This document shows positions 35,874 through 61,298 of a stretch of DNA of 64,000 nt, one piece after another. The translations under genes and the position numbers were made by a program. Origin of the DNA: Saprospiraceae bacterium. GTDB lineage: Bacteria > Bacteroidota > Bacteroidia > Chitinophagales > Saprospiraceae. The stretch is taken from the NCBI GenBank assembly GCA_016715965.1, contig JADJXG010000001.1, positions 1,527,252 to 1,591,251 of the forward strand. The letters are read 5' to 3'. The notes under the pieces were generated by a model. That model had not been told where the DNA came from. It was given only the letters and a program-made list of their open reading frames with translations, and did not search any database. The number at the start of each line of letters is the position of its first letter. Position 1 is the stretch's first letter.

Positions 35874-38738
35874 TTATGGTTTCTTTAATTTGTTGGCAAA
35901 ATCTCCGCCTTTCACCATGCTGATTTTGTCCAGACTGACGTGCTTTTTAATGGCTTGATTCACCTGATCAACGGTCAGAGTGGAGAGTTTTTTCTCAAAA
36001 TCTTCCGTAAACTGATAAGTCCGACCGATGTGATGCAAATAACTCAAACCGGAAGCAAGTGAATTGTCCTGAGATCTGGTCACCTTGCGGGATTGCAGTA
36101 TTCCTGATTTTGCTTCTTCGAGTTCCTTGTCTGTAAATCCATCTTTCAGCATTTTTTCAATTTCTTCTTTGAAGGCTTGCTCCAGACGATCGCGGTTTTC
36201 CGGTGCATAAATGGCATACACCGTAAAATTACCGGCCCTGTCCAATGATTCTGCATTCAGCTGAGAGCCCACTCCGTAAGAAATACCTTCCTTCTGGCGA
36301 ATTCTGGTGGCCAAGCGGCTGTTTAGAAATCCTCCTCCCAAGATATAGTTGGCCATTACCAGCGCAGGATATTCCGGATCATCGTCCCGCACCGCTATAT
36401 TACAACCCGCCAAAAACATGGCATTGGCCTTGTCCGGCGTTTCGATGTTGAGGTCTTTTTTAGGAGCATCGTTGTATTTGGCCGTGATTCGCGCATAAGG
36501 CTTGCTGCTTTTCCATTTTCCAAAATCTTTCACCAACTGGGATTTTATCGCGTTTTCATCAAAATCACCTACAATGGCTACAGAGGCATTGGTGGAACCA
36601 TAAAATTCTTTGTGAAAACTCCTCAGCTCGTCAATTTTCAGATTTTTAACAGCCTCCATTTCTTCTTCCAGACTCATGGTATATCGGATGTCACCTTTGG
36701 GGTAAGGACTGAGGTGTTTGGTGTACGCCAATCTCACCAGAGATTGGGGATCTGATTTTTGCTCTTCCAGGTTGGCGAGATCCTCGTTTCTGAGTTCTTC
36801 AAATTCCTTTTCTGAAAATGCAGGGTTTTTCAACATGTCGTTGACCATGCTGAGCACCTGGGAAAGATTGTCTTTGGTGGTCTGCACAGAGGCTGTGACC
36901 TGACCGCGGGATTCATAAAAATTGACCCTGGCTTTGAGTTTGTCCAGCTCGTCCTTGATTTGTTGCCTGCTCATGGTTTTTGTGCCGCGATCCAGCATCG
37001 CAGCTGTATAATTGGCGATAACAGCTTTGTTTTTTAAACTATTTTCGTCACCCATGTACAAGGTCATGGTAGCATTGACCATATTGCCTTTGGTGGATTT
37101 TGGCAACAGTGCCCATTTGATGGAATTGCTTTCCTGTCCTCTTTTGGTGCGCTTTTCAATGTTCATGGGAGATGGGTCAAAATCCTCACCCTGGGCTTTC
37201 GGGGGATCTCCTTTGTAACCCTTGAGCAGAGCAGCAATATCCGGGGCAGAAGGAATTTCCGAACGGTCTGGTTTTTCTTCCGGAATAAACAATCCCACGG
37301 TTCTGTTGCTTGGTTTGAGATAGGTGTGCGCGACCCTTTGCACATCTTCCTGGGTAACTTTGCGGATATGGTCCCTGTAAAGGAAGGTCAATCTCCAATC
37401 ACCCATCCCGATGTATTCGCTTAACCTCCTTCCAAGGGCTTCGGTGTTGTTGAAAAGCAAATCAAAATCTTTTAATTTTTTGGTGATGGATCTTTCCACT
37501 TCTTCTTTGGTGGCCGGATTGGATTTCATTCCATCCAGGGTTTGAATCAGGGTGTTTTTGGCGTCTTCAAGATCGTTTTCTTTCCTCACCTGAGCGTTGA
37601 AATAAGCAAAACCGGGTTCTTTCAAAGTGGCGCACCATCCCCAAATGCTGGAAGCTTTTTTGGTTTCCACCAGGGCTTTGTATAGTCTGCCCGAAGGCTC
37701 TGACGTCAAAATATCGGTGAGGACATCAAATGCAGCTGCATCGGGATGTGCACCGGGAGGAATGTGATACATACAAGCCACCGCCTGGACATCTCCCACT
37801 CTTTTTAAGGTGACCAATCTTTCTCCATCCTGGACGGGTTCTTCGGTATAGGTAGGGATCAATTCTCTTTCGGGTTTGGGTATCTTCCCGAAATATTCTG
37901 TCACCAAATCCACCACTTTTTTCTCATCGATTTTACCAGCGACCACCAATACGGCATTATCGGGCTGATAGTATTTGCGGTAGAAAGCCTGGAGTCTGTC
38001 GATCGGCACATTTTCAATGTCTGCTCTGGCTCCAATGGTGGTGTTGCCATAATTGTGCCATAGATAGGCAGTTGACATCACCCTTTTCATCAAGACGCCG
38101 GTTGGACTGTTTTCTCCGGACTCATATTCATTTCTCACCACAGACATTTCGCTGTCCAGGTCTTTTTTGGCAATAAAAGAATTGACCATGCGATCGGCTT
38201 CGAGGTCAAGCGCCCAGCGAAGATTTTCTTCGGTGGCCGAGAATGTCTCAAAATAATTGGTTCTGTCATACCAGGTGGTTCCATTCGGTCTGGCACCATG
38301 GCTCGAAAGTTCGGATGGGATGTCTGGATGTCTGGGGGTTCCTTTAAACACCAAATGTTCCAAAAGATGCGCCATTCCTGTCTCGCCATATCCCTCATGT
38401 CTGGATCCTACCAGATAGGTAATGTTGACAGTGATGGTTTGTTTGGAATTGTCCGGAAAGACCAAAAAGCGAAGTCCGTTGGGGAGCTTGTATTCTGTAA
38501 TTCCTTCCACCGAGGTGACTTTTTCAGCTTTTGGATCTGAGTTTTGGGCATTGGTGGTGGAAAGGGTTTGGGCACTGGCCTGGTTCATATTGTTGTCCTG
38601 TTGGTTGGTGGTTTTTGCCGAAGTGGCGGCTCCGACAATTTTAGGTTTTTTTGGGTTAAATCCCTGGGCCTGCAGTGTATGAAAGCAGACACCGGTTGAG
38701 ATTAACAAGAAAAGAATGGATTTGATCATATTTTGCAT
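35874..38738 (-). CDS. M16-family (pitrilysin/insulinase-like) zinc peptidase, double-length
   Basis: Signal peptide, inverted zinc motif HLLEH in GMAHLLEHLVFKG. 954 aa, consistent with fused active and inactive M16 halves. Confidence 0.9.
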   Translation of the reverse strand: MQNMIKSILFLLISTGVCFHTLQAQGFNPKKPKIVGAATSAKTTNQQDNNMNQASAQTLSTTNAQNSDPKAEKVTSVEGITEYKLPNGLRFLVFPDNSKQTITVNITYLVGSRHEGYGETGMAHLLEHLVFKGTPRHPDIPSELSSHGARPNGTTWYDRTNYFETFSATEENLRWALDLEADRMVNSFIAKKDLDSEMSVVRNEYESGENSPTGVLMKRVMSTAYLWHNYGNTTIGARADIENVPIDRLQAFYRKYYQPDNAVLVVAGKIDEKKVVDLVTEYFGKIPKPERELIPTYTEEPVQDGERLVTLKRVGDVQAVACMYHIPPGAHPDAAAFDVLTDILTSEPSGRLYKALVETKKASSIWGWCATLKEPGFAYFNAQVRKENDLEDAKNTLIQTLDGMKSNPATKEEVERSITKKLKDFDLLFNNTEALGRRLSEYIGMGDWRLTFLYRDHIRKVTQEDVQRVAHTYLKPSNRTVGLFIPEEKPDRSEIPSAPDIAALLKGYKGDPPKAQGEDFDPSPMNIEKRTKRGQESNSIKWALLPKSTKGNMVNATMTLYMGDENSLKNKAVIANYTAAMLDRGTKTMSRQQIKDELDKLKARVNFYESRGQVTASVQTTKDNLSQVLSMVNDMLKNPAFSEKEFEELRNEDLANLEEQKSDPQSLVRLAYTKHLSPYPKGDIRYTMSLEEEMEAVKNLKIDELRSFHKEFYGSTNASVAIVGDFDENAIKSQLVKDFGKWKSSKPYARITAKYNDAPKKDLNIETPDKANAMFLAGCNIAVRDDDPEYPALVMANYILGGGFLNSRLATRIRQKEGISYGVGSQLNAESLDRAGNFTVYAIYAPENRDRLEQAFKEEIEKMLKDGFTDKELEEAKSGILQSRKVTRSQDNSLASGLSYLHHIGRTYQFTEDFEKKLSTLTVDQVNQAIKKHVSLDKISMVKGGDFANKLKKP

Positions 38739-38893
38739 TTTTAGTGATTAGACGTATGTGTTTCCAAGCATTAACGTACCAACTACGAAAGTGTTCGTAA
38801 TTGAAGAAAAATATTTTGTCAATTTAGGACATAATTGATCGGCTTAAGTTTAAGATGCTCTTCCATTTGGCTGGATCTAATGATAAAAATTAT

Positions 38894-39970
38894 CTATTCA
38901 ATATCACCCTGTCTCAGTTTTTCCATGTTCTCGGCGACCCTCAGGGCCTCAATGATATCATCCAACTGGCCGTTCATAATTTCGCTTAAGTTGTACAATG
39001 TCAGATTGATGCGATGATCAGTCACCCTGTTTTGAGGATAGTTGTAAGTTCGGATTTTGTCCGAGCGATCGCCGGAACCCACCAATGATTTGCGCTGGGC
39101 TGCAATGCTGGACTGGTGGGCCTGAAGGGATTGTTCCTTTATTTTCTGGATCAATCTCCCAAATGCAATTTCACGGTTTTTGTGCTGGGATCTGCTCTCG
39201 GTGCTTTCGGAGACTACCCCGGTGGGTAGATGGGTAAATCTTACCCCTGATTCCGTTTTATTGACATGTTGACCTCCGGCGCCACTTGATCGAAAGGTGT
39301 CAACCCTTAAGTCAGCTTTGTTGATGTCCATATCTTCCAATTCCATTTTTGGGAGGACCACTACAGTGGCTGCACTGGTGTGCACCCTTCCGGAAGCTTC
39401 TGTATCCGGTACCCTTTGGACCCTGTGAGCACCAGATTCGAATTTGAGTTTGGCATATACATCGACTCCCGATACATCAAGGACAATCTTACTGTATCCT
39501 CCAACTGTACCTTCTGTTTCTGAAAGCACTTCCCATTTAAATCCCTGCAAATCAAAAAAACGGGTGTACATTCTCAATAGATCCCCTGCAAAAAGGCTTG
39601 CCTCGTTACCACCCGTACCGGAGCGGATTTCAAAAATGACGTCCTTGCTGTCTTCAGGATCTTTGGGTACCAATTTAATTTTAAGGTCTGCTTCCAACCT
39701 TTTCAATTCTGAATCAGCAAGCTCAAGCTCTTCTCTTGCAAAATCTGCCATTTCTGCATCAGCTCCTTCCAGCATTTCTCTGGCATCTTGCCGGAGTTTT
39801 AAATTTTTAAGGTATTCCAGATACAAACGGACGATTTCTTCGAGATCCTTGTATTCTTTGCTGGTTTTTGAATATTCGCCAATGTTGGATACAACCTCCG
39901 GATCAGAAAGCCGCTCTTCCAAAGTCTTGTACCGTTCGTGGATGGATTCTAATTTTTGAAGCAATTGCAT
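38894..39970 (-). CDS. prfA: peptide chain release factor 1
   Basis: GGQ motif (SSGAGGQHVNKTESGVR) and an RF1-type PxT tripeptide context (RVQRVPDTEASGRVHTSA). 358 aa. Confidence 0.9.
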   Translation of the reverse strand: MQLLQKLESIHERYKTLEERLSDPEVVSNIGEYSKTSKEYKDLEEIVRLYLEYLKNLKLRQDAREMLEGADAEMADFAREELELADSELKRLEADLKIKLVPKDPEDSKDVIFEIRSGTGGNEASLFAGDLLRMYTRFFDLQGFKWEVLSETEGTVGGYSKIVLDVSGVDVYAKLKFESGAHRVQRVPDTEASGRVHTSAATVVVLPKMELEDMDINKADLRVDTFRSSGAGGQHVNKTESGVRFTHLPTGVVSESTESRSQHKNREIAFGRLIQKIKEQSLQAHQSSIAAQRKSLVGSGDRSDKIRTYNYPQNRVTDHRINLTLYNLSEIMNGQLDDIIEALRVAENMEKLRQGDIE

Positions 39971-39991
39971 ACATTATTGGCTAACAGGGGG

Positions 39992-39999
39992 CAAAAATA
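39992..39999 (-). promoter_or_regulatory. -7 box TATTTTTG upstream of prfA
   Basis: The plus strand reads caaaaata, 22 nt upstream of ATG 39970. A second match (caaagtta) lies at 40007-40014. Confidence 0.4.
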
Positions 40000-40075
40000 G
40001 CTTTTGCAAAGTTATTGCGATTATATTTTATTTGCAGTGATATCAATGATTTCAATGATCTTTGATCTTTCCAAT

Positions 40076-56359: not shown

Positions 56360-56671
56360 ATGAAAAAAGTTATTTTGATTTCAGGTCTTTTAATGTTTGG
56401 TATTGCAAACATCCTCAACGCACAGGAATCCAGGGATGCAATGGCTTATGAAAGACAAAAGGCAGGTCGGGATTATGAAAGGGGCAGATTTTCCAAAGCT
56501 GAGATTAGAGAGATGAAAAGAGATCATCGGAAGCTCAGAGCCTACAAACGAGCAGCCAAAGCGGATGGTTATATCTCAAGAAGAGAAGCCAATCAGTTAA
56601 GAAAAATGGAGAACAGAATTTATCACAAACAACGCTTTGCTAGCAAAAAGAGACACAGAAGCTGTTTATAA
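56360..56671 (+). CDS. small secreted, highly basic hypothetical protein
   Basis: Signal peptide MKKVILISGLLMFGIANILNAQ, then a K/R/E-rich helical region of 80 aa. A clear terminator follows. Confidence 0.55.
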   Translation: MKKVILISGLLMFGIANILNAQESRDAMAYERQKAGRDYERGRFSKAEIREMKRDHRKLRAYKRAAKADGYISRREANQLRKMENRIYHKQRFASKKRHRSCL

Positions 56672-56922: not shown

Positions 56923-58368
56923 CTAAAAATTTTCTTCAATATTTCTTTTTTTTGATTCTCTATAACTCACATTATTGTCCGATCTGAATTCAATCCATTT
57001 TTTACATTGTGACGAACCACATTTGCATTCAAAAGCTTCTGATTCATTGTTCAAAAACTCTGAATAATCCAAAGTAAGTTCTTCCCCTTTGGAAATTTCT
57101 TTGCTTGCGATGACATTCAGTCCGGAATATAAGGTATTGGGATCGCAACTATGATTCTGAGGTGCCCATTCGGTGGGGTTTATGTCCCAAAGACAATAGA
57201 CTTCCTTACTGAGTGGATATGCATATTGTCTAAAAATTAATTTTTCTTTTTCATTCCAGTTGTTATCCACATGGCTTTTGGTAACTATTCTCTGGGCTCT
57301 TTCTTCGCCTTTGAAAATAACATCTCCTTTGCGAAATGACTTTAGTGCATATATACCAAATCCAGAAATGGCATTACCTCTCATTTCATAGCATTTCTTT
57401 TTTGATTGATGGCGTTGGATTCCTTCTTCGACGATGGCTTTCAAAAATTGATCTTGACCAAAACCACTGATCTTCAAAATATGATCAGCAGAACCCTCAA
57501 ATCCATCGGGGTAGAAAACCGAACAAGTAAAATTAACTTCCAAAAAATATATTTCACCTTTTGGGTTAAGCCTAAAATCCATCCTGGCATATCCTACCCC
57601 ACTGAATGCTTCAAATATTTTACAGGCAGCTTGTTTTAAACGTTTGGTCAGATCTATGTCAGAACAAGCCTGGTTGGCATCTGAATGCAATTCCGAAGTT
57701 TTAAGGGCATAAGTTTTAAAAGAATATCCACTTGGAAATTTATACTCTATTGGGTGGAGGCTCATACATTTTTCAGGACCATTTGGGGTTGAAATCACCA
57801 ATACTGTAAATTCTCTCCCTTCAATAAATTCCTCCACCAGAAGTTTCGGATATTCTTTTAGCAAATCCATCGCCTTGCTGTAAAGTTGATCTTTGGTTTT
57901 GACCAACGAATTCTGGTCAATCCCCAACGAATCTCCGGCTTTAATTGGTTTGACAAAAAGAGGGAATTTAAGGGCATCGATATTTGGATTTTCGACAGAA
58001 TCCAAATCGAGAATGGTATAAGCAGGAGTTTGGATACCTTCGCAATAGGCAATGTATTTCATGAGATCTTTTGGAGGATCGTACAATTCAAGGTTTGGTC
58101 CGGTGTATGGAAGGTTCAATTGTTCGAGCGAATAAATCACATCAATGGAAGGTATGTCCCATTCCAGATATCCCTCACACAGATTGACATAGATGTCAAA
58201 ATTTTGTAAGGATAGATTCCTAAGCTGTTTGTACACAGAAAGCTTGTTGAGAAACTCATGATGGAAACTGGCTTCAGGCCACCACTTGGAAAGATCCCTT
58301 GGTGGATCATAGTGTCTGTAGTCTAAAACAGATTGACCATAATCAGCTTGTAAAATACAAATTTTCAT
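56923..58368 (-). CDS. fusion protein: D-Ala-D-Ala-ligase-like ATP-grasp domain + C-terminal SET/post-SET methyltransferase domain
   Basis: ATP-grasp core: FPLFVKPIKAGDSLGI, EEFIEGREFTVLV, GYARMDFRLNPKGEIYFLEVNF. SET region (aa about 325-460, nt 56989-57396): GFGIYALKSFRKGDVI, NHSCDPN (57136-57156), GEELTLDY, and post-SET CKCGSSQC. Confidence 0.8.
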   Translation of the reverse strand: MKICILQADYGQSVLDYRHYDPPRDLSKWWPEASFHHEFLNKLSVYKQLRNLSLQNFDIYVNLCEGYLEWDIPSIDVIYSLEQLNLPYTGPNLELYDPPKDLMKYIAYCEGIQTPAYTILDLDSVENPNIDALKFPLFVKPIKAGDSLGIDQNSLVKTKDQLYSKAMDLLKEYPKLLVEEFIEGREFTVLVISTPNGPEKCMSLHPIEYKFPSGYSFKTYALKTSELHSDANQACSDIDLTKRLKQAACKIFEAFSGVGYARMDFRLNPKGEIYFLEVNFTCSVFYPDGFEGSADHILKISGFGQDQFLKAIVEEGIQRHQSKKKCYEMRGNAISGFGIYALKSFRKGDVIFKGEERAQRIVTKSHVDNNWNEKEKLIFRQYAYPLSKEVYCLWDINPTEWAPQNHSCDPNTLYSGLNVIASKEISKGEELTLDYSEFLNNESEAFECKCGSSQCKKWIEFRSDNNVSYRESKKRNIEENF

Positions 58369-59462
58369 TGGGTTCTTCTTCTTAATGCGTCTTCAATGAT
58401 TTCCAAAATCATTTGAGAAAAAGTATGTCCGCTGAATCTAAGGATAGCGCCGATGCTCGTAAAATTTTCATCCTCACTTAATCCGCACTGAGCGTTGGCT
58501 TCCAACACATACAACTCACCGGTTTTTTCTTTTTGTCGAATATCAATTCTGGTGTAGCCAGTACCTTTCAAACAATGGTAAACATCCAAGCTGAGTTTAT
58601 GGAGTGGATCGATCATTGCTGATTCGCAAGCAGAATAATTAAACAGAAATTCTCCTCCCTCTAATTCATCTTCTTCTTCATAAGTTTCCCACAATCTGTC
58701 AAATGATAAAATTCTTTCTGTGGCGGGGATATTTTGGCTAAACAATCTTTCGACCGGAGGATAGATTTTCAAGAACTTTGGTTGGTGAGCGGATCCTGTC
58801 AACAGGGTGGTAAATTCGCGTCCATCGATAAACTCCTCTGCTAAAAATCCATCAATGTCGAGTTTCCATCCCTTGTACCCGTTTTTCAATGATTCATAAA
58901 CTTTCAACGCATCTTCGACTGTGTAAACCACATTCTTTATTCCCAAACCCATGCTTCCTCCGGATACAGCAGGCTTGATAATCAAGGGTGCATTGAGCTT
59001 ATAAAAAATTTCCTGAAATTGGTCTTGATGACCCGTCAAAATCTCCCATCTGGGAGTTTTAATCCCTGAAAGATCAAATAACTTTTTCATGGGAATTTTG
59101 GAAGTGGTAATCTCATAGAAGAATTCTCCGGCTCCAGTATAAACCATACCCATTTGCTCCATTTCCTGCACAAATTTTAAACCAGGAGCTCCATTCACTT
59201 CATCTCCATCGCAAAGGTTTATGATTAATGGATTTTTGGGCAGAGACTCTTGCTTTATTAATTCCAATTGTTCTATGTAATTGGATTGGGTAATGTATCT
59301 CCATTTCCAATCCAAACCCAATTCCATAAAACACTTTTTGTATTCAGCATGACTTTGCTCAAAATCATAATAGTATTCCAAATAGTCATCATGATGAGGT
59401 ATAGAAGGAACAAGTACCCAGATCAAATATTCTTGTCTAATTTCAGCTATCGAGGTATTCAC
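58365..59462 (-). CDS. D-Ala-D-Ala-ligase-like ATP-grasp ligase
   Basis: PLIIKPAVSGGSMGLGI, EEFIDGREFTTLL, GYTRIDIRQKEKTGELYVLEANAQCG. The start is uncertain: GTG 59462 or TTG 59426. The six-frame ORF extends to 59636 but overlaps the SET gene. The stop overlaps the next ATG (ATGA). Confidence 0.75.
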   Translation of the reverse strand: MNTSIAEIRQEYLIWVLVPSIPHHDDYLEYYYDFEQSHAEYKKCFMELGLDWKWRYITQSNYIEQLELIKQESLPKNPLIINLCDGDEVNGAPGLKFVQEMEQMGMVYTGAGEFFYEITTSKIPMKKLFDLSGIKTPRWEILTGHQDQFQEIFYKLNAPLIIKPAVSGGSMGLGIKNVVYTVEDALKVYESLKNGYKGWKLDIDGFLAEEFIDGREFTTLLTGSAHQPKFLKIYPPVERLFSQNIPATERILSFDRLWETYEEEDELEGGEFLFNYSACESAMIDPLHKLSLDVYHCLKGTGYTRIDIRQKEKTGELYVLEANAQCGLSEDENFTSIGAILRFSGHTFSQMILEIIEDALRRRTQ

Positions 59463-59955
59463 TTTTTTTCCTGAGGATATGATTACTGATTTTGTATCGA
59501 AGCAATTTTGATAGATCAATGCTATAAGCACCTTTGATAGATTGAAAACAATCTGCCGAATGGCAAAAACAATCAAACGCCTGATCCATCTTCCATTCGG
59601 TGGACGGATAAAAATAACAAAGTTGTTCTCCTGCATTAATATCAGTCAGGGCAATCAATTGGAAACTGTCAGGATCTGGGAAACAATTGGGAGAACAGGA
59701 ATGGTTAAGGTATTGAAGAAATTCTGGTTGAAGTTCAATGTGTTGCTGGTCGTTGATTTGGATGGTGAGATAAGTAGGAGAATCCAAAATCACCGAAGCA
59801 CCGAATTTTTGGAGTACCTCCCCTTCTTTACAAAATCGCTTTGCAAACAATCCTTTTTGTTGATTGCTGGGGTTGATTCTTAGTTCTATGCTTTTGTTAC
59901 ATTGTGTTAAAGGAACCCATTCTCTGGGATTCACTTCAACGATTGGATCAGGCAT
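59443..59955 (-). CDS. stand-alone SET-domain protein with post-SET Cys motif
   Basis: 170 aa with KGLFAKRFCKEGEVL, NHSCSPN, GEQLCYFY and CFCHSADC. ATG at 59955. Confidence 0.75.
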   Translation of the reverse strand: MPDPIVEVNPREWVPLTQCNKSIELRINPSNQQKGLFAKRFCKEGEVLQKFGASVILDSPTYLTIQINDQQHIELQPEFLQYLNHSCSPNCFPDPDSFQLIALTDINAGEQLCYFYPSTEWKMDQAFDCFCHSADCFQSIKGAYSIDLSKLLRYKISNHILRKKSEYLDS

Positions 59956-60130
59956 CCGTTTTTTTTTGTAAAGATGATATTATTCCTTAATATGGATCAA
60001 TAATTATCACCCAAACTTTATTCTTATCAATGAAGGATTTTTATGTCATTGATAACCAGAATATTTAATCTGCTCTTCAGCTTGAACATTTCACCTGAAG
60101 GAGCTTAACTTTAGTTATTCTAAGCTTGGA

Positions 60131-61150
60131 TTATTTCAGGCCCAACAAAAACCCAATGGTAAAATTGGCATCCCAATCAAAGATAAAATTTTTGCAGCCG
60201 GTTTCATCTGCTATCGCTTTGTAAATATTGATACCAGCCTTTTGCTTTTCTCCGCTCGTAGAATATTCCGAAGGAGATTTAAGTACAGTGTACCTTTCTT
60301 TGCCATTTCGCACTTGTTTGGCCAATTCAAAAGGAATTCCGCCAATGATAAAACAATAATCTCTATGACTGACCGGGACTTGTCCCACAACTTTGGAAAC
60401 ATCGGAGGCAACCTGGCTATCTGATAGTCCTTTTTGAAAATATTTGGATCCATGGGATTCCAATGCGGTCATCTTACCAGCTAACTTAAAGGCAATTTTG
60501 GTATTGCCGGAGCCCATGTCCACCATAAATGCTTTGTCTTCAAAACTACTTGGCAAGGCACATTGGAAACCATAGGTTCCTTCCTGGGCGGGTGTTACTT
60601 CATTGACATAATAACCTATCTCCTTTAATCCTTTGGCTATTCTCACCACCTTTTCTTCGTTTTTCGCACCGGAACTCACTACAAAGTGTATGTCCTTGCC
60701 GGCCACCCCATAATCAAGCATTCCCCGGATATAATTTTTCAGACCGCTGCGAATATCGTCATCTGTAACCATTTTTTCATGCACTAAACTGGATCCAAAC
60801 TCTGCTTTTTCCAATTTCCATCTTTTCTGATCATCAATCAAAACAATAAAGGAGTTAAATCCTGCAGCACCAAGTTCAACAACACCCCTGAGTTTTCCAT
60901 TTACAGGAACCGGGGCCGTGTAGTTAAAAGAAGTGCTTGTGGCAGTGCCTGACGCCTGTTCTGTACCATTTGGATTGCTATTCTCGGCGCTTGCTTCTGT
61001 ATTCGGACTTTCAGTACCGGATGGTGCATTAGAATTGGATTGAACTCCAAATTTTTCCTGAAGCGTCGGTTCATATTTCTTATAGACAAAAAACAAACCA
61101 CCCAAGATGATGGCAATGATCAGGATTTTTGAAAAAGCAGTTAGTTTCAT
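60131..61150 (-). CDS. membrane-anchored ASKHA-fold phosphatase-like protein (Ppx/GppA- or NTPDase-like)
   Basis: N-terminal TM helix (MKLTAFSKILIIAIILGGLFFVY), a low-complexity S/T/N/P linker, and ASKHA phosphate motifs VVELGAAGFNSF and MVDMGSGNTKIAF. Confidence 0.5.
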   Translation of the reverse strand: MKLTAFSKILIIAIILGGLFFVYKKYEPTLQEKFGVQSNSNAPSGTESPNTEASAENSNPNGTEQASGTATSTSFNYTAPVPVNGKLRGVVELGAAGFNSFIVLIDDQKRWKLEKAEFGSSLVHEKMVTDDDIRSGLKNYIRGMLDYGVAGKDIHFVVSSGAKNEEKVVRIAKGLKEIGYYVNEVTPAQEGTYGFQCALPSSFEDKAFMVDMGSGNTKIAFKLAGKMTALESHGSKYFQKGLSDSQVASDVSKVVGQVPVSHRDYCFIIGGIPFELAKQVRNGKERYTVLKSPSEYSTSGEKQKAGINIYKAIADETGCKNFIFDWDANFTIGFLLGLK

Positions 61151-61298
61151 ATTAACAAGTTTTGTGTGTTTGGCAGAAGAATTGAACAAATATCCATGCG
61201 AAAATACAACTGGTCGCCAAATTGATGAAAGAATTGTTTGTTATTTAAGGTTAAGAATCTGTAAATCAATAAGATTTATTTAGACCTAAATGGCGTAA

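Follow-up and report, generated by a model that had tools for sequence, protein, structure and literature searches.

A stretch of 64,000 nucleotides from a Saprospiraceae bacterium (assembly GCA_016715965.1, contig JADJXG010000001.1, forward-strand positions 1,527,252 to 1,591,251; hereafter the window) carries a three-gene operon whose last gene joins, in one polypeptide, an ATP-grasp ligase resembling D-alanine-D-alanine ligase (Ddl) to a SET/post-SET methyltransferase. The available evidence suggests that this fusion protein is more likely to build a small methylated compound than to modify proteins, and we give a probability of about one half to a small-molecule pathway that would make a methylated, amino-acid-derived product. 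This proposal is based on the apparent catalytic competence of both halves, the BurB-type SET enzyme encoded in the same operon, the Ddl-like character of the ligase, the lack of a conserved neighbouring gene for a substrate protein, the recurrence of exporters, the gene fusions among the partners and the conservation of the operon.

The fusion protein and its operon

The three genes are tightly packed on the same strand, in the order stand-alone SET, ATP-grasp, ATP-grasp-SET:

59956..60130 (-): intergenic region of 175 bp upstream of the operon, presumed promoter region (sequence)
59443..59955 (-): first gene, stand-alone BurB-type SET methyltransferase, 170 residues (Pfam SET 5.8e-11, BurB matches, Foldseek)
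58365..59462 (-): middle gene, a second, stand-alone Ddl-like ATP-grasp ligase, about 365 residues from its probable start (sequence, Pfam, NCBIfam, homologs)
56923..58368 (-): fusion gene, last of the operon, Ddl-like ATP-grasp ligase and SET/post-SET methyltransferase, 481 residues

An earlier reading of this DNA, made from the sequence only, had described the last gene as one polypeptide with no stop or frame break between the domains. Indeed, the gene is a single uninterrupted reading frame of 481 codons with its sole stop at the end, and a protein 100% identical to its product was retrieved from a Saprospiraceae metagenome-assembled genome (MAG) in the homolog search (P0001). The AlphaFold2 model of the fusion protein, built from 57 homologs, is confident throughout (mean predicted local distance difference test, pLDDT, 90.0; predicted template modelling score, pTM, 0.86). 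A pTM of 0.86 for a two-domain fusion implies a defined packing between the ATP-grasp and SET domains. Conservation was assessed over 57 sequences from Bacteroidota and Acidobacteriota. With the key ATP/Mg2+ and SET residues invariant and the model confident, both halves look catalytically competent. They comprise the following features:

57394..58368 (-): residues 1-325, ATP-grasp half, entire Ddl fold (Pfam/NCBIfam, PDB profile, Foldseek, invariant columns); conserved nucleotide/Mg2+ residues K140, E179/E180, E186, R262, D264, R266, E277, N279
56989..57393 (-): residues 326-460, SET and post-SET half (Pfam SET, KMT2D/KMT2A and BurB matches, invariant columns)
57136..57156 (-): residues 405-411, NHSCDPN
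57064..57081 (-): residues 430-435, ELTLDY, with the catalytic Tyr435
57004..57027 (-): residues 448-455, CKCGSSQC
56926..56988 (-): residues 461-481, C-terminal tail, predicted helical, net neutral, unconserved

In sequence and fold, the ATP-grasp half is nearest to the small-molecule ligases Ddl, VanA and VanG. Pfam assigns residues 128-279 to Dala_Dala_lig_C (PF07478; E 8.3e-23, 81.4 bits for a cut-off of 24), a profile search of the PDB matches DdlB at 1.1e-22, and the top 50 Foldseek hits are all Ddl, VanA or VanG. Because this half superposes on whole Ddl chains (target-normalised TM-score of up to 0.81, 330-380 aligned columns), the fold with its three subdomains is complete, as had been anticipated for residues 1 to about 320 (about 1-325 here). 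K140, E179, E186, K223, R262, D264, R266 and E277 are invariant, and N279 is conserved at 90% or more. The ATP- and Mg2+-binding set is thereby represented by the Lys of a VKP motif, an EExI hinge, R-x-D and E-x-N; we take the conserved residues to match the nucleotide, Mg2+ and acyl-phosphate residues K144, E180, E187, R255, D257, E270 and N272 of DdlB.

A true D-alanine-D-alanine ligase (EC 6.3.2.4) was considered and rejected. The best NCBIfam Ddl family, TIGR01205, scores 94.1 bits against a cut-off of 245.65, no Pfam match to Dala_Dala_lig_N (PF01820) was obtained, and profile alignments to Ddl start only at residue 47-81. The sub-threshold score, the unrecognised N-terminal domain and the fusion to SET together define a Ddl-like ligase rather than a Ddl.

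The C-terminal half scores above the Pfam cut-off for SET (PF00856; residues 336-435, E 4.8e-11, 43.4 bits for a cut-off of 22.4), in agreement with the SET domain previously placed at about residues 325-460. The NHSCDPN, ELTLDY and CKCGSSQC motifs are as first read, and the coordinates given earlier for NHSCDPN are exact. A GFG motif and a Zn-binding cysteine cluster (C408, C448, C450, C455) are also found. Invariant positions are G336, E355, Y382, W394, W401, H406, C408, Y435, F438, F446, C448, C450 and C455; they include the S-adenosylmethionine (SAM)-binding His of NHSC, the active-site Tyr, the four post-SET Zn ligands and the aromatic residues Y382, W394, W401, F438 and F446. N405 is conserved at 90% or more. 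The "basic tail" initially thought to follow the SET domain does not exist as such, since residues 459-481 hold five Lys/Arg for five Asp/Glu and are unconserved in the family.

The first gene of the operon clearly encodes a BurB-type enzyme, BurB being its nearest solved relative by sequence and by fold. BurB of Burkholderia thailandensis is a SET enzyme that S-methylates free L-methionine to S-methylmethionine and grips the amino acid chiefly through main-chain contacts (PMC12542666). A search with the single sequence finds BurB at 1.7e-12 and the next match at 1.6e-5. With a profile of 31 sequences, BurB is matched at 5.8e-21 over almost the whole domain, as compared with 2.4e-9 for KMT2A, which comes next and is the best-scoring histone lysine methyltransferase. 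BurB structures also occupy Foldseek ranks 1-3 for the AlphaFold2 model (pLDDT 93), with TM-scores of 0.65-0.70, followed by SETD2 at 5e-7. The family is characterised by the motifs T(L/V)Q, NHSC, FYPSTEW and CxC...C; among homologs, the search retrieved solely its own Bacteroidota family, under generic names. Equivalents of Thr73, Gln75, His93 (H85) and Tyr124 (Y116) of BurB are kept, as is the S-T-E segment after the Tyr, H85 and Y116 being invariant. The SAM-contact residue His138 is replaced by Phe130. No genes of the BurI, BurD or BurE type, which belong to the dimethylsulfoniopropionate (DMSP) pathway, were found in the window. The two SET domains of the operon share 34% identity over 58 residues, so they are not close paralogues but represent different kinds of SET domain.

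The middle ligase is 27% identical to the ATP-grasp half of the fusion. Its stop codon overlaps the ATG of the fusion gene (ATGA at 58365-58368). Its start is probably the GTG at 59462, which overlaps the end of the SET gene by 20 nt and gives a protein of 365 residues; homologs of 363-389 residues occupy the same position in 76 loci. The longest possible frame (58365-59636 on the minus strand, 423 residues, ATG at 59636) runs too far upstream, entering the SET gene in a different frame, and gene callers may therefore mis-start the middle gene. The GTG-start arrangement resembles that of two other Saprospiraceae loci (L002 and L003).

Upstream of the operon, a sigma-70-like match at 60030-60003 was no better than chance, the Bacteroidota TAnnTTTG motif was not found, and the results of scans for promoters and terminators did not rise above chance. 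None of the three proteins matched a PADLOC model of anti-phage defence.

Distribution, partner fusions and neighbouring genes

Eukaryotic TTLL12 had been named in the earlier reading as the only similar pairing of ATP-grasp and SET domains. The pairing is not rare, however: thousands of bacterial proteins combine the two domains. An exhaustive HMMER search over 1.84 billion representative sequences gave 221 clusters (50% identity) at E <= 1e-30, many of them aligned from residue 1 to about 460 at merely 30-50% identity. Both Pfam domains are present in all 120 best homologs. When one genome per GTDB species was scanned, at least 582 species genomes were found to hold a close relative of the fusion. 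The best 80 of these are nearly all Chitinophagales (Chitinophagaceae and Saprospiraceae) and include cultured Lacibacter, Ferruginibacter and Sediminibacterium. A distant branch of the family occurs in Acidobacteriota (Terriglobia, Bryobacteraceae, Blastocatellia) and in a MAG labelled "Deltaproteobacteria". The recurrence of the single-frame architecture in the 120 homologs and at 80 independent genome loci bears out the earlier opinion that the fusion is not an artefact of gene calling. Two contigs carry a Chitinophagales-type operon (57-59% identity to the window protein) in MAGs labelled Brevundimonas vancanneytii (L036) and Gemmatimonadota (L071); these contigs are probably mis-binned.

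The usual reading of a SET domain, almost without exception, is that of a protein (histone) lysine methyltransferase, and the fusion family is automatically annotated in this way. Many homologs are thus named "SET domain-containing protein-lysine N-methyltransferase" by NCBI, the JGI name being "D-alanine-D-alanine ligase". The NCBI name derives from the generic SET domain, and the protein-lysine substrate is putative. Literature searches retrieved no paper describing a bacterial ATP-grasp-SET fusion, only work on TTLL12 and unrelated papers. The architecture is already visible in databases and unstudied; the operon, the partner fusions, the link to BurB and the association with exporters are new context.

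Of 81 Chitinophagales loci, 72 have the genes in the order SET, ATP-grasp, ATP-grasp-SET, while the flanks vary. Seven further loci lack the SET gene, probably through contig ends. Two proteins (P0004, 838 residues; P0046, 831 residues) combine homologs of the middle ligase and of the fusion protein, at 48% and 60% identity, respectively. Moreover, Acidobacteriota have tri-domain proteins of 630-670 residues in which ATP-grasp-SET is followed by a second SET domain. This second, BurB-like domain corresponds to the stand-alone SET (31-35% identity over 130-145 residues, E 1e-27 to 1e-30). A two-domain gene comes directly after a tri-domain gene in one 9.5-Mb genome, and in the "Deltaproteobacteria" MAG a tri-domain gene stands alone. 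The proposal that the fusion couples both activities is thus supported by conservation across phyla, by a translationally coupled operon and by the fusion of the partner genes elsewhere.

Many loci outside Chitinophagales have the two-domain gene without a BurB-like SET nearby, which identifies ATP-grasp-SET as the invariant core, with the two remaining enzymes as lineage-specific partners. The regular expressions used to separate the two SET types are imperfect (22 fusion motifs were missed) and served for qualitative purposes only. Other architectures were also encountered: four SET domains with SAF matches and an ATP-grasp domain (P0148, 1415 residues), ATP-grasp-SET-ATP-grasp (P0138, 953 residues), and an ATP-grasp domain fused to a clostripain-type C11 peptidase (P0258, 824 residues).

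The recurrent neighbours of the module are exporters only, and this in two phyla. No conserved neighbour encoding a substrate protein or a precursor peptide was found in about 160 loci, nor any conserved small open reading frame or precursor gene beside the module in the 81 Chitinophagales loci. In 50 of the 78 Chitinophagales loci with enough flanking sequence, a gene of the ATP-binding cassette (ABC) family ABC_membrane_3 (PF13748, 5.9e-46, about 309 residues) follows the fusion gene at 50-200 bp on the same strand. It consists of a lone membrane domain without an ATPase domain and has no NCBIfam family (e.g., L001:9521-10411 and L063:11579-12508). Acidobacteriota-type loci are adjoined by a full ABC half-transporter, which often carries a cyclic-nucleotide-binding domain: it is present at all four further genome loci and, overall, a full exporter is adjacent in about 11 of about 45 usable loci, a count that is approximate because naive frame calling is noisy in high-GC metagenome contigs. 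According to NCBIfam, the adjacent exporters are generic MsbA/HlyB-like proteins below every family cut-off, and they have no C39 peptidase domain.

A gene of the JmjC/Cupin_8 type without a specific NCBIfam family abuts the tri-domain gene in two Acidobacteriota-type loci (L087:6101-7000 and L116:4961-6004); it might encode a hydroxylase or demethylase for the compound made by the module. At another locus (L099:8174-12299), the tri-domain gene stands by genes for a transferase of the FemAB/Acetyltransf_6 type (347 residues), an ABC exporter (714 residues) and an extra SET protein of 200 residues. LicD, likewise envelope-related, also occurs near some loci.

In the window, the operon is flanked by housekeeping or unrelated genes, and the window includes LpxK and a gene of the EPSP-synthase/MurA family. 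Two neighbours could not be annotated. The product of one (56360-56671, plus strand, 103 residues) starts with a hydrophobic stretch and is otherwise very basic and rich in Arg/Lys; that of the other (60131-61189, minus strand, 352 residues) combines a hydrophobic segment at the N-terminus with a low-complexity region and matches Ppx/GppA only weakly, below threshold. Neither gene is conserved beside the operon in other genomes. Rfam gave no RNA family in the window. Elsewhere, the region 36000-40000 shows a raised GC content (0.44-0.46) and a strongly negative AT skew. It looks ordinary and holds genes for an M16 peptidase pair-domain protein (35874-38738, minus strand) and a class-1 peptide chain release factor (38894-39970, minus strand).

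Small-molecule product or modified protein

The three genes may be viewed as a module, BurB-type SET, Ddl-like ligase and Ddl-like ligase-SET, that would form a self-contained biosynthetic unit. In the mechanism that we propose, the ATP-grasp half would activate the carboxylate of a substrate as an acyl phosphate, with ATP and Mg2+, and couple it to an amine as in Ddl. The SET half would use SAM to methylate, once or several times, a nitrogen or sulfur nucleophile of the same substrate or product, and the fusion of the two halves, with their fixed packing, would favour hand-over of the intermediate. The product could be, for example, a di- or tripeptide-like compound with a methylated ammonium or sulfonium group and, in many lineages, the adjacent ABC-type exporter would probably send it out. 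From the genes and their context we infer that the substrate is a small molecule, in which order the reactions run, what the product is and that it is exported. It is possible, though rather doubtful in our view, that the products form a hitherto undescribed class of "onium" peptide metabolites (for example, S-methylmethionine or an N-trimethylated residue within a di- or tripeptide), made by Ddl-like ligases together with SET methyltransferases, without a non-ribosomal peptide synthetase (NRPS) or the ribosome, and often exported.

It should, however, be noted that several observations weigh against a small-molecule substrate. The best whole-length alignment of the SET half of the fusion is with KMT2-type protein lysine methyltransferases: KMT2D and KMT2A are matched across the whole domain (7.7e-9 with the single sequence, 2e-14 with the family profile), whereas BurB, which tops the SET-type matches of the family profile (5.9e-16), covers the C-terminal half only, from NHSC to post-SET. 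ATP-grasp enzymes that modify proteins also exist, namely RimK and the TTL family. As for the stand-alone enzyme, similarity to BurB would not by itself prove a small-molecule substrate. The SAM-contact residue His72 of BurB, and likewise its Ser88, are replaced in the family of the stand-alone enzyme by Leu63 and Leu80, respectively; in BurB, the S88A variant retains more than 60% of the activity (PMC12542666). Kept and replaced residues together point to a BurB-type enzyme whose substrate may be methionine or another compound. Since a BurB-like SET is lacking nearby in many loci outside Chitinophagales, the argument drawn from BurB applies to this operon and not to the whole family. Finally, the association with exporters is partial, and the ABC_membrane_3 gene is absent from the whole window and from the other Saprospiraceae loci.

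These points bear on the possibility that the fusion, as its NCBI name implies, modifies a protein: the ATP-grasp half would add amino acids to the C-terminus or a side chain of a protein encoded elsewhere, as RimK and TTL enzymes do, and the SET half would methylate a lysine of the same protein. The SET half of the fusion has every canonical lysine-methyltransferase motif in addition to its alignment with KMT2A-D, the window flanks are housekeeping genes, and precedents are offered by the protein-directed ATP-grasp ligases and by the domain pairing of TTLL12. Nevertheless, the ligase is of the Ddl type and no RimK or TTL family scores above threshold, the sole rimK_fam match, on the middle gene, reaching 18.6 bits for a cut-off of 143. 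Neither a candidate substrate protein conserved beside the module in the roughly 160 loci nor a basic tail exists. The role in protein-tail modification that the sequence-only reading had found conceivable is therefore one from which the evidence leans away, given the BurB-like partner, the closeness of the ligase to small-molecule ligases, the lack of a conserved substrate gene nearby and the recurrent exporters, and we consider it unlikely.

The exporters could also be taken to indicate that a ribosomal or otherwise pre-formed peptide is tailored, with the ligases adding residues, the SET enzymes methylating and the ABC exporter secreting the product. An ATP-grasp ligase, PGM1, adds residues to a peptide in this manner in pheganomycin. 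The adjacent exporters resemble peptide or bacteriocin exporters, albeit below every family cut-off, one locus has a FemAB-type aminoacyl-transferase with an extra SET, and JmjC-like genes abut two loci. On the other hand, the 81 Chitinophagales loci have no conserved small frame or precursor gene, the tri-domain gene can stand alone, and the exporters have no C39 peptidase domain, all of which makes peptide tailoring improbable. Closeness to Ddl would suit a variant of the cell wall, in which peptidoglycan or another envelope polymer would receive an alternative dipeptide made by the Ddl paralogues and methylated by the SET enzymes, the more so as envelope genes lie near some loci (FemAB-like, LicD) and in the window (EPSP-synthase/MurA family, LpxK). 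With a score of 94 bits for a cut-off of 245.65, however, the fusion is far under every Ddl cut-off; the N-terminal substrate motif of Ddl is unrecognisable, Pfam gives no Dala_Dala_lig_N domain, and the envelope-gene neighbours are not conserved. A role in the cell wall thus appears very improbable.

Whatever the product, a family found in at least several hundred species pairs SET domains with Ddl-like ligases, and the operon described here adds a BurB-type enzyme to them. If a small molecule is indeed made, thousands of proteins carry a misleading annotation, the known chemistry of the bacterial SET fold broadens, and a metabolite of abundant environmental Bacteroidota and Acidobacteriota awaits identification. 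If, in addition, the product proved to be an "onium" peptide, SET would be a recurrent fold for small-molecule tailoring in bacteria and a possible new source of methylated sulfur or nitrogen compounds, the producers being hundreds of Chitinophagales and Acidobacteriota species of soil, freshwater and wastewater. The question lends itself to direct testing, since Lacibacter luteus, L. cauensis and Ferruginibacter paludis are cultured carriers and the module has only three genes.

Comparison with known systems

With Ddl, VanA and VanG, the fusion protein shares the three-subdomain ATP-grasp fold and the ATP/Mg2+ residues. It differs from Ddl in that the motif of the D-Ala1-binding residue Glu15 of DdlB is not evident, in a longer loop past the N279 motif and in the fused SET domain. 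With BurB (also MSMT; PDB 9l4t, 9l4v), the stand-alone SET enzyme has in common the T-x-Q strand, NHSC, the Tyr, the S-T-E segment and the post-SET cysteines; the identity is merely about 26-40%, and the partners here are ATP-grasp ligases. The SET half of the fusion has, like KMT2/MLL, the GxG, NHSC, ELxxDY and post-SET CxCxxxxC motifs. Unlike KMT2/MLL, it has no chromatin-related domains or partners and is part of a bacterial, cytoplasmic, ligase-fused protein, and its genomic context does not suggest a protein substrate.

TTLL12, proposed at first as a guide to function, likewise carries a SET-type and an ATP-grasp-type domain on one polypeptide. The likeness proved superficial. The domain order is opposite, the ATP-grasp domain of TTLL12 belongs to the TTL family (PF03133) and that of the fusion is of the Ddl type, with no match to PF03133 among the Pfam ATP-grasp families at E <= 0.01; these differences argue for an independent fusion event. 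Furthermore, the abstract of the TTLL12 paper reports no histone-methylation activity for that protein, whereas the bacterial fusion keeps the catalytic residues in both halves. A parallel of another kind is provided by Ngg, the bifunctional enzyme of N-acetylglutaminylglutamine amide synthesis, in which a GNAT domain and an ATP-grasp domain make an osmolyte dipeptide. Ngg follows the same logic as that proposed here, an amine-modifying domain joined to an ATP-grasp dipeptide ligase, with an acetyltransferase in the place that SET takes in the fusion.

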